DNA of 64,000 nt from Octopus vulgaris (Eukaryota): assembly GCA_951406725.2 (NCBI GenBank), contig OX597831.1:77252001-77316000 (forward strand). Direction: 5' to 3'. The position numbers were made by a program, and so were the translations under genes. The notes under the pieces were generated by a model. The model worked only from the letters and a program-made list of their open reading frames with translations, did not search any database and had not been told where the DNA came from. Positions 55,880 through 58,408 of the stretch are shown here, one piece after another. The first letter of the stretch is position 1. Each line of letters starts with the position of its first letter.

Positions 55880-56160
55880 CTTGGGAGTACCTTGTATCTC
55901 TATAAAGTCAGGGCCTTCTCTTCAATTGCTCGATAGAATTCAAAACCGAGATGTTATCGTGGTAGATCCACTTATTTCTACTTGGTTAGTTTCTTTGACT
56001 CATCATCGAAATATATATTAGCTGTGTCTTTTCTATAATTCCGTGGTCATTGCTCTGATAACCCTTGGGTGTAGTACTTCCATCAAGAGCTTTAAACGTG
56101 TAATACGCTTCTCTTCCCAGGCATACCGTTCGTCTGTTGAGATTCCTGTTAATCATAAGT
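55880..56160 (+). pseudogene. Old CR1-like LINE C-terminal fragment (continues at about 57170-57300)
   Basis: LQLLDRIQNR...SLTHHRN..LCLFY..GHCS resembles the CR1 post-RT region. Confidence 0.55.
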
Positions 56161-56231
56161 CTTTTTACATTATTTACATTATTTACATTATTTACATTTG
56201 CCGGATATTTGTCCTCATCTTGTTTGTTGTT

Positions 56232-56277
56232 AACACAACGTTTCAGCTGATATACTCTCCAGCCTTCATCAGGTGTC
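56232..56277 (-). ncRNA. Type-I hammerhead ribozyme, intact core
   Basis: gacac-CUGAUGA-a-ggcug gagaguauau cagcu-GAAAC-GUU-guguu. Confidence 0.82.
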
Positions 56278-57022
56278 TTGGGGTAATTTCGAACCTGGGT
56301 TCTCATTCCTAAGGTACTTTTTCGAAGTTATTATTATTATTATTATTATTATTATTATTATTATTATTATTATTATTATTATTATTATTATTATCATTAT
56401 CATTATTATTATTATTATTATTATTATTATTATTATTATTATTATTATTATTATTATTATTATAATTATAATTATTATTATTATTATTATTATTATTATT
56501 ATTATTATTATTATTATTATTATTATTATTATTATAATTATTGTTATTATTATTATTATTATTATTATTATTATTATTATTATTATTATTATCATTATCA
56601 TTATCATCATCATTATTATTATTATTATTATTATTATTATTATTATTATTATTATTATTATAATTATTATTATTATTAGTATTATTATAATTATATTATT
56701 ATTATTATTATTATTATTATTATTATTATTATTATTATTATTATTATTATTATTATTATTATTATCATTATCATTATCATTATTATTCAGGTCACTGCAT
56801 GGAATCGAAATCGGAACCACTGCGATATGCCCACGGGCATGTGGCATTAGTGGTTAAAAGCGCGGGCTACTTACCTCAAGATTCCGAGTTCGATTCGAGA
56901 CAGTAACCTGAGTAATAATAATAATAATAATAATAATAATAATAATAATAATAATAATAATAATAATAGTAACAGCGAAAAAAAACCTTAGGAATGAGAA
57001 CCCAGGTTTGAAATTCCCCCAA

Positions 57023-57068
57023 GACTCCTGATGAAGGCTGGAGGGTATATCAGCTGAAACGTTGTGTT
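57023..57068 (+). ncRNA. Type-I hammerhead ribozyme, intact core
   Basis: gacuc-CUGAUGA-a-ggcug gaggguauau cagcu-GAAAC-GUU-guguu, with one stem I mismatch. Confidence 0.8.
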
Positions 57069-58408
57069 AACACCATCAAGATGAGGACAAATATCCATCA
57101 AATGTAAATAATGTAAATAATGTACTTAATTCCTCATATCTTAAATATAGAACTGTATTATAAGTCTTTTTATTCCGATAGTTTCATCATTGATTTATTT
57201 TCCTATGGTCTACGATATTCAGTCATTGAAACTTTCTATCAGCTGACAACTTTTCTAATTTGCAGGCCTCTTGTTTTCATCCTTTGTACACCCTTACGCA
57301 ATATAGCGTCAAACCATTCTTAGGGACGAAATCGTCAAAACAAAAGCAAAAAAATCAAAAACAAAACAAGAAAAAGAGGGGAAAGGAATACCTACCTTAC
57401 CTCTGACGCCACCACTAAAAGCTGTTTCGCTCCTTATTTGAGTTACTTCCATTAATGTGACACAAAACGTAGGTAGGAACTTACTTTTGTACTAATACAT
57501 AGAAACCATTTAATAGATTATGGTACTGAAACACATTATTTGACCAGGTTTTTCTGAATTTGCAGGCCTCTTCTTTTAGCTCTTTGTAGACTAAACAATT
57601 CAAACCTACAGATATAACGGACACAGACCCAGGGAAAAACAAAAACGCACAAACTACACATATATGGCATCAACCAATGACACTCTATTTATACAATGTA
57701 TGAAACGGCCATAAAACATCAAAGAACAGAATATATATATACATATATAATGTGTATGTATATATACAATACATATACACCTAGATATACATATACACAC
57801 ATATGTATATATATATATATACATATACACACATATGTATATATATATATATATACATATATTTATGTATTCATATATATATATATATATATATATATAT
57901 ATGTATGTATATGTTTATATATATATATATATATATATATATATATATATATATATATACATATACATATATGTGTGTATGAATATATATTTGTCCATAC
58001 ATGCATATATACAAACAGATACAAACACGTACAGACGTACACATATATCATAATGTAAACTAACAATAAGATTGCATTACAAAAAAATAACTCCTCTACA
58101 ATTAAAAGACGGAACTGTCTTATCAGCACAAAACCACAAGCATTTCTGTCCAAAAATGTAATATACAAATTTCATATTAGACATGAAAGCGGTTAGTTAC
58201 CAAACACACAAATACAACCGGTTCCCGATGCTGGTTCACCATATGTATATACAATGATGGGTCAGTGCAGTACATTACAGGAGAAAACACAAAACCATTA
58301 CTGTATATACTGTGCGTTCGTGTATATATGTATTTTGTGTATGTATATATACACATACATATATACACATATATATATATGTATATATATACACCATACA
58401 TACATATA

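Follow-up and report, generated by a model that had tools for sequence, protein, structure and literature searches.

A tRNA-headed, hammerhead-bearing insertion of Octopus vulgaris as a probable pair of pseudo-LTR copies of a Poseidon-type Penelope-like element

The insertion at 56155-57172 of the window, by which we mean the whole 64,000-nt stretch of Octopus vulgaris DNA analysed here, probably consists of two pseudo-LTR (pLTR) copies, head to head, from an autonomous Penelope-like element (PLE) of the Poseidon type, one that has a likely Pol III promoter and whose short copies would be by-products. That the insertion is of PLE origin is close to certain. Judged by its sequence relatives in the genome, the whole unit, head included, is the pLTR plus the first ~55 codons of this element.

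Layout of the insertion and its hammerhead

Both copies lie between target-site duplications (TSDs) ATAAGTCTTTTTA, at 56155-56167 and 57160-57172 on the + strand. The single 13-bp TSD that an earlier note on this DNA had described as bracketing the pair is present; its effective length is 11-13 bp, given that the final 1-2 letters overlap the arm end, and TSDs of the family measure 11-14 bp. The upstream, inverted arm (56168-56834, - strand) was recognised as a PLE pLTR by comparison with ORF-attached pLTRs; it ends at the short 3' end and has no tail. It comprises, all on the - strand, 9-mer repeats (56168-56198), a minimal hammerhead core (56237-56272), an expanded (AAT)n of ~154 units (56328-56787) and inverted head pieces that join the forward arm (56787-56834). 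This copy had been described as truncated inside the head, which is incomplete: the inverted piece +48..+79 (56787-56817) is followed by an extra piece, +1..+18 (56817-56834), and the two arms meet at the palindromic start of the head.

The forward arm, on the + strand, opens with the tRNA-Arg-like head (56835-56912), part of the PLE pLTR, in which the A box (56842-56853) carries a 1-nt insertion in this copy and the B box occupies 56886-56896. An (AAT)n spacer follows (56913-56972), and then, from the ATG at 56994 to 57159, a remnant of the N-terminus of the PLE ORF, broken in this copy and spanning both hammerhead and tail. Within this remnant lie a minimal type I hammerhead (57023-57068; see PMC4209133), 9-nt repeats (57101-57124) leading to the short 3' end, the first inferred RT start site, and a PLE tail extension of 35 nt (57125-57159) leading to the long 3' end, the second inferred RT start site. 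The inverted and forward arms are 94% complementary across 163 nt; the inverted arm is 90-92% identical to most ORF-attached pLTRs, and the two arms show 79-92% identity to the pLTRs of the parent element. Head, (AAT)n, hammerhead core, 9-mers, 35-nt extension, inverted arm and TSD all lie at the positions claimed for them, and the proposal of a single insertion event is supported.

The insertion interrupts an old LINE-like repeat (55780-57360, + strand), whose flanks occupy 55780-56154 and 57173-~57360 and are clearly collinear in 4 of 11 loci with other copies of that repeat. The claim that an old element was split stands; its name, CR1, is unconfirmed, the RT-like C-terminus having no Pfam match. 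By its motif, this C-terminus looks like a member of the CR1/L2 group.

In the forward arm, the hammerhead core CTGATGA lies at 57028-57034 and GAAAC-GTT at 57056-57063, with H17 at 57063, after which the cut is predicted. Helix I (57023-27/57064-68) and helix II (57036-40/57051-55) have 5 bp each, and an extra A follows the core. Helix III is loop-less, being formed by the palindromic GAAACGUU, and GAAAC runs directly into GUU; further features are the extra base after position 9 and G10.1-C11.1. On these features, the motif is a minimal hammerhead with a loop-less helix III, as in PLEs. Minimal hammerheads in PLE pLTRs are of a dimer-only type with weak cleavage in vitro (PMC4209133). The motif had been called intact, which is true of the core; the copy as a whole is decayed, the first helix II pair being G-U in both arms and helix I of the forward arm having a U-U mismatch, besides the A-box insertion.

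The Rfam hammerhead models, a scan suggested by the earlier note, do not score the motif. With these and the tRNA models the window insertion remained unscored, and ARAGORN returned no tRNA within the window. Minimum free energy folding gave no hammerhead dimer; the best copy does fold helices I and II. Of 93 arms, 55 keep an intact core, and among copies the core is conserved no better than the remaining sequence (3.4% vs 4.1%). It is likely that the hammerhead would cut only as a dimer, and we predict that it is dispensable for insertion. In the related element PAc, uncut RNA served as template (PMC11167929).

The repeat family and its autonomous parent

Exact matches in the genome (2.8 Gb) number 4,752 for a 21-mer from the hammerhead (reversed control, 0), 4,511 for a tail 26-mer (control, 0) and 804 for a UTR 22-mer. 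Overall, 71 of 192 arms contain the hammerhead 21-mer without a mismatch, and 7 of 35 head-anchored arms do so; these shares suggest ~13,000-24,000 arms, a large octopus repeat family that would be reclassed if the present reading is true.

Head and hammerhead are linked across copies, as had been supposed: of 29 head-anchored loci, 24 have the body after the head. An upstream inverted piece was found in 22/29, 17/29, 45/69 and 15/20 loci of four samples, the last of which was ordered along C1. One-sided tails and inverted 5'-truncated copies are hallmarks of PLEs (PMC8557442). In this family, 62 of 65 head-to-head pairs carry the tail at a single end, two lack it altogether, and one, a three-arm composite, has it at both ends. 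A different, intact 775-aa PLE family of the same genome served as a control: its own 26-nt tail is one-sided in 9 of 9 inverted pairs. A TSD score of at least 8 was obtained for 40 of 62 pairs vs 61 of 3,782 mismatched pairs, the TSDs being mostly of 11-14 bp. As to the alternative of inverted or tandem arrangement, inverted pairs are common and direct short tandems rare, with a direct neighbour in one of 69 loci; among the first 100 hammerhead 21-mer matches on C1, no direct pairs were found within 2 kb.

The search for the parent was guided by the tails. PAc depends on RNA that lies beyond its RT start sites; for this reason the longest tail ends were selected, and 6 of 30 longest-tail loci, together with 1 of 20 position-ordered loci, continue past the tail into one common ORF sequence. 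A first all-against-all search beyond 119 tails had shown no common extension, which emerged after the longest-tail selection. Genome-wide there are 69 exact tail-ORF junctions, and 55 distinct junctions were examined. What had looked like a SINE body is in frame with the ORF past the tail and is thus the N-terminus of the PLE. Through the hammerhead-coded residues, this N-terminus aligns to an 847-aa RT protein of other source (39%, E 8e-36). RVT_1 matches a natural 219-aa piece with E 3e-6 and 27.5 bits, under the cut-off of 29.6, and most of the 56 homologues of the ORF have PF00078. The C-terminal pieces have no Pfam GIY-YIG (PF01541) match; the C-terminus is 53% identical to the homologue P0004 and contains a motif, Y-x-I-P-C-x-C-G-x-x-Y-x-G-E-T, that looks GIY-YIG-like. 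The Neptune-type Cys linker between RT and EN is absent in a copy of the element (L337) and present in L103 and L159. We therefore assign the parent to the Poseidon type, an assignment made from the absence of the linker.

Of 30 loci that have the C-terminal end of the ORF, 24 show the stop codon and a short UTR with the tRNA-like head immediately behind them, so the head is part of the pLTR of the autonomous PLE. The order is head, (AAT)n, ATG, hammerhead, 9-mers, tail, RT ORF with a C-terminal EN-like part, short 3' UTR and again head; 8 of 17 extended loci span the ORF start through the second head, and one locus (L336) is full-length and starts at the head. All ORF copies observed are broken, and the five that were measured differ by 5-9% from the column majority. 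The family also contains pLTRs from partial tandems and inverted 5'-truncated copies. The 3' part of the window unit, which the earlier note wished to see aligned with the pLTRs of autonomous PLEs, matches a PLE pLTR plus ORF start and not a LINE 3' end. Together with the one-sided tails, this match bears out the view that PLE RT/EN and not a LINE mobilised the unit.

A chance join of a LINE-driven, (AAT)n-tailed tRNA SINE to a PLE fragment, or LINE twin priming, is extremely improbable. In several copies, R4/Dong-like LINE ends do occur inside the (AAT)n, and near some heads a body is missing (5/29, or 10/30 by a rough motif test), as such a join would allow; however, the ORF end and the head meet at one fixed junction, the arms repeat the same 3' sequence and the tail is one-sided. 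Such a repeat of one 3' sequence in both arms is not known from LINE twin priming. The loci with LINE 3' ends or ORF pieces inside the element's (AAT)n are L007, L009, L040, L044 and L173, and by their motif these pieces are presumably R4/Dong-like.

Other searches led elsewhere. A hunt for a partner led by GIY-YIG covered 58 of 150 scored loci (30 + 8, 2 of which overlap the 30, + 20) and gave other families or unrelated sequences, none with the same pLTR. PLE fragments adjoining L169 and L002 are chance neighbours. With the 55-aa body as query, only short copies and one predicted Octopus sinensis protein (P0001) were found; this protein starts with repeat-derived residues and is probably a gene-model artefact or an exonisation. 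A metagenome scan found no relative of the element.

The tRNA-like head and the origin of the short copies

Compared with 30 genomic tRNAs of six isotypes, the head aligns best to tRNA-Arg, and most copies have an intact A box and B box. The octopus SINEs OR1, OR2 and OK reportedly have tRNA-derived heads. Those of OR1 and OR2 derive from tRNA-Arg. OR1 and OR2 are CORE SINEs (PMC4824008, PMC4758252); in contrast, the PLE unit has ~10 nt between B box and (AAT)n, which would leave no room for a CORE of ~60 bp.

The 5' ends of the copies cluster at the start of the head. The first 30 sites along C1 that match the B box exactly are partly dependent (two are a local duplicate and two are arms of one insertion); of these, 20 end at -12..+3, five at +6..+15 and one at -17, while the remaining four run on for at least 137 nt into the UTR. 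With the five at +6..+15 set aside, this amounts to 20 of 25 position-ordered copies whose 5' end lies at the tRNA-like +1. The samples not chosen on the head agree: 70 of the 88 arms that reach +3 stop at -12..+3 and ten pass -30, a count that omits 36 head-anchored arms. Of the 55 tail-ORF junctions, 13 have an upstream head, and of the nine that reach +8, eight stop between -17 and +8. We propose that the tRNA-Arg-like A/B-box sequence of the pLTR is likely a Pol III promoter of the PLE, and that RNA starts by Pol III at the head is, on balance, the better expectation from these ends. The palindrome at the head start could itself favour stops or joins there.

The sense strand points in the same direction. 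Over 2,355 columns (11 copies), T4 is nowhere a majority run, and none of 43 heads has T4, while each of two control PLE ORFs has nine T4 runs and the mean for other ORFs is 3.4 per kb. G4 runs are absent as well; from the shorter runs 1.9-2.7 T4 runs would be expected, and one non-overlapping tiling gives p=0.08. Low Phe is common to the homologues, and two unrelated ORF pieces are equally T4-poor. The absence of T4 is thus no more than suggestive of Pol III use.

It is also conceivable, at a clearly lower probability, that the same PLE carries the head as a passive SINE remnant in its 3' UTR and that a Pol II promoter or an RT-stalling hairpin sets the 5' ends. In this direction go the weakness of the T4 test and the palindromic head start, which 12 of 99 arm junctions overlap by 18 nt. 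There is a precedent as well, the Drosophila virilis Penelope pLTR having an internal promoter of Pol II type (Inr/DPE) at the same position (PMC2377424). However, the stops at -7..+3 coincide with the 5' side of the palindrome or lie beyond it, in the place where one expects a pre-tRNA to begin, and not at the 3' foot of the palindrome. Moreover, most copies retain both boxes undamaged, and the 43 heads are free of T4.

Three RNA-seq runs, labelled as from a related species, gave 4,134-5,847 reads each, equal on both strands. They show no end pile-up; the head was masked in mapping, so the reads are silent on Pol III. At L134:1500-1680 (runs X21-X23), A>G plus T>C reach 11% over 14 listed sites vs 41 of 2,564 letters in DNA copies. 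These changes are likely A-to-I editing of hairpins of inverted pairs, in a comparison where sites were chosen as listed and the DNA is not matched.

Are the short copies, then, a SINE family of their own? The earlier note had proposed a separate non-autonomous family, and this is not supported: the head is in the pLTR of an autonomous PLE, the body is the N-terminus of its ORF, and age and variants are the same. Of the features of tRNA-derived SINEs, the A/B-box head is present and a LINE-derived 3' tail is absent, the 3' part being PLE. The median distance from the column majority is 0.039 for short arms (n=54) and 0.040 for UTR-attached arms (n=29; p=0.37); the two sets carry the same variant classes. 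Because of this equal divergence and these common variants, and because a head-started RNA primed at the first pLTR would give the exact short unit, we favour the explanation that the short SINE-like copies are by-products of the PLE's own RNA. Some amplification from solo copies may have run alongside.

A stronger form of the latter, in which the short copies are a true SINE with solo pLTRs as masters, transcribed from their Pol III promoter and served by PLE protein in trans, is the earlier note's view with a head inherited from the PLE; it is unlikely, if less so than the passive head. It would account for the excess of short over long copies, seen in the 804 matches to the UTR 22-mer vs the thousands for tail and hammerhead, and every tailed copy does hold the promoter and both priming sites. 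Against it, there is no age gap, and the variant classes are common to short and ORF-attached arms. PAc, moreover, requires downstream RNA (PMC11167929), which most short copies do not have, exact tail-ORF junctions being so few.

Proposed mechanism and related systems

We propose the following pathway for the by-product route. RNA synthesis by Pol III would begin near the head start, at roughly -7..+1. Nicks made by the PLE protein in both DNA strands, 11-14 bp apart, would each prime one cDNA, one from the tail end and the other from the 9-mer repeats. Microhomology, frequently that of the palindrome where the head begins, would then join the two cDNAs into an inverted pair that has a single tail and a single TSD. 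A head-started RNA primed at the first pLTR would yield exactly the head-(AAT)n-body-tail unit that resembles a SINE. In PAc, likewise, two RT start sites bound the tail, and RNA downstream of these is needed (PMC11167929). Arm junctions overlap by at least 2 nt in 68 of 99 cases, a raw count with no chance control set beside it. The arms of one pair share rare letters (22 vs 5.7 expected) and yet, at N7, a common variant, the two arms differ in 11 of 16 informative pairs, so that one and two template RNAs are both still possible. With thousands of short inverted pairs that carry variants, this question of one RNA or two for PLE arms becomes countable.

How far Pol III would read is a separate matter. 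That the whole PLE ORF is transcribed by Pol III is somewhat doubtful, and an uncapped 2.7-kb Pol III mRNA would need unusual translation, which counts against it. Only tentatively, then, do we put forward an autonomous, protein-coding retrotransposon transcribed throughout by Pol III from a captured tRNA-Arg promoter, with a T4-free 2.7-kb sense strand, uncapped translation and SINE-like copies made by priming at the first pLTR. If true, this would be a LINE-SINE pair within one element, and SINE-like families could arise without a separate master gene. It would also open a path by which repeats that combine tRNA and hammerhead, Sm-alpha among them, could arise. SINEs and non-autonomous TRIMs have known Pol III promoters, while autonomous partners have been argued to need Pol II (PMC10886601), and a PLE with a tRNA promoter would break that split.

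Neither a PLE that has a tRNA-like promoter nor a cephalopod family that combines tRNA and hammerhead is described in the literature covered, which included PMC8967140, PMC6962438 and 10.1101/596502; the present family may sit in Repbase or Dfam as Penelope or as SINE. The supplement of PMC13282606, when searched, gave no occurrence of 'hammerhead'.

The closest known system is Poseidon PAc of Anolis carolinensis, which likewise has a hammerhead at the pLTR-ORF junction within the ORF start, a tail between two 3' ends, RT with a C-terminal EN-like part, and AT-rich targets. A tRNA-like promoter is unreported in the available text on PAc (PMC11167929), whereas A/B boxes occur in the octopus pLTR and mark the point where most copies start. 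Penelope of D. virilis is alike in the position of the promoter in the pLTR, in a tail of 34-37 bp at the ORF start, and in partial tandems and inverted copies; it differs in having an Inr/DPE-type promoter and an intron (PMC2377424), whereas the octopus element has a tRNA-Arg-like head and (AAT)n.

Among non-coding repeats, the schistosome Sm-alpha/Sj-alpha elements also combine a tRNA-like Pol III sequence with a hammerhead (PMC6765202, PMC2770079). These are often tandem and have a canonical hammerhead and no known autonomous parent, unlike the octopus unit, which is rarely tandem and has an ORF-bearing parent. The TRIMp3 elements Cassandra, Helenus and Ajax likewise hold a small-RNA-derived Pol III promoter in the terminal repeat; they are non-autonomous elements with true LTRs, PBS/PPT and a TSD of 4-5 bp, whereas the octopus element bears an ORF and makes TSDs of 11-14 bp, and their autonomous partners have been argued to need Pol II (PMC10886601). 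Animal non-LTR retrozymes are also short, hammerhead-bearing derivatives of PLE pLTRs; they form tandem arrays, and the available text on them (10.64898/2026.07.22.740005) contains neither 'tRNA' nor 'polymerase III'.

Other hammerhead-bearing repeats and PLEs were met along the way. The window contains a second PLE-type inverted pair, of a different family, at 59453-59921, inserted in (TA)n, with minimal hammerheads at 59678 (-) and 59722 (+), arms 92% alike and an extension of ~90 nt on the left arm only. A third hammerhead-like repeat, at 59196-59405, has a CCGACGA-type core and 15 matches in 1.43 Mb. Elsewhere in the genome, a very young Neptune-type PLE (L109, L116, L141-L160) shows 150 identical RT matches among the 150 scored, with many 775-aa open frames and with inverted and tandem copies in (TA)n. 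A second Neptune-type PLE (L103-L108, L085, L077) has 781-aa frames, and related copies may carry a U3-A8 variant of the hammerhead within their 3' UTR. Finally, L123 holds a divergent GIY-YIG domain unlike the Neptune type, possibly a Naiad remnant.
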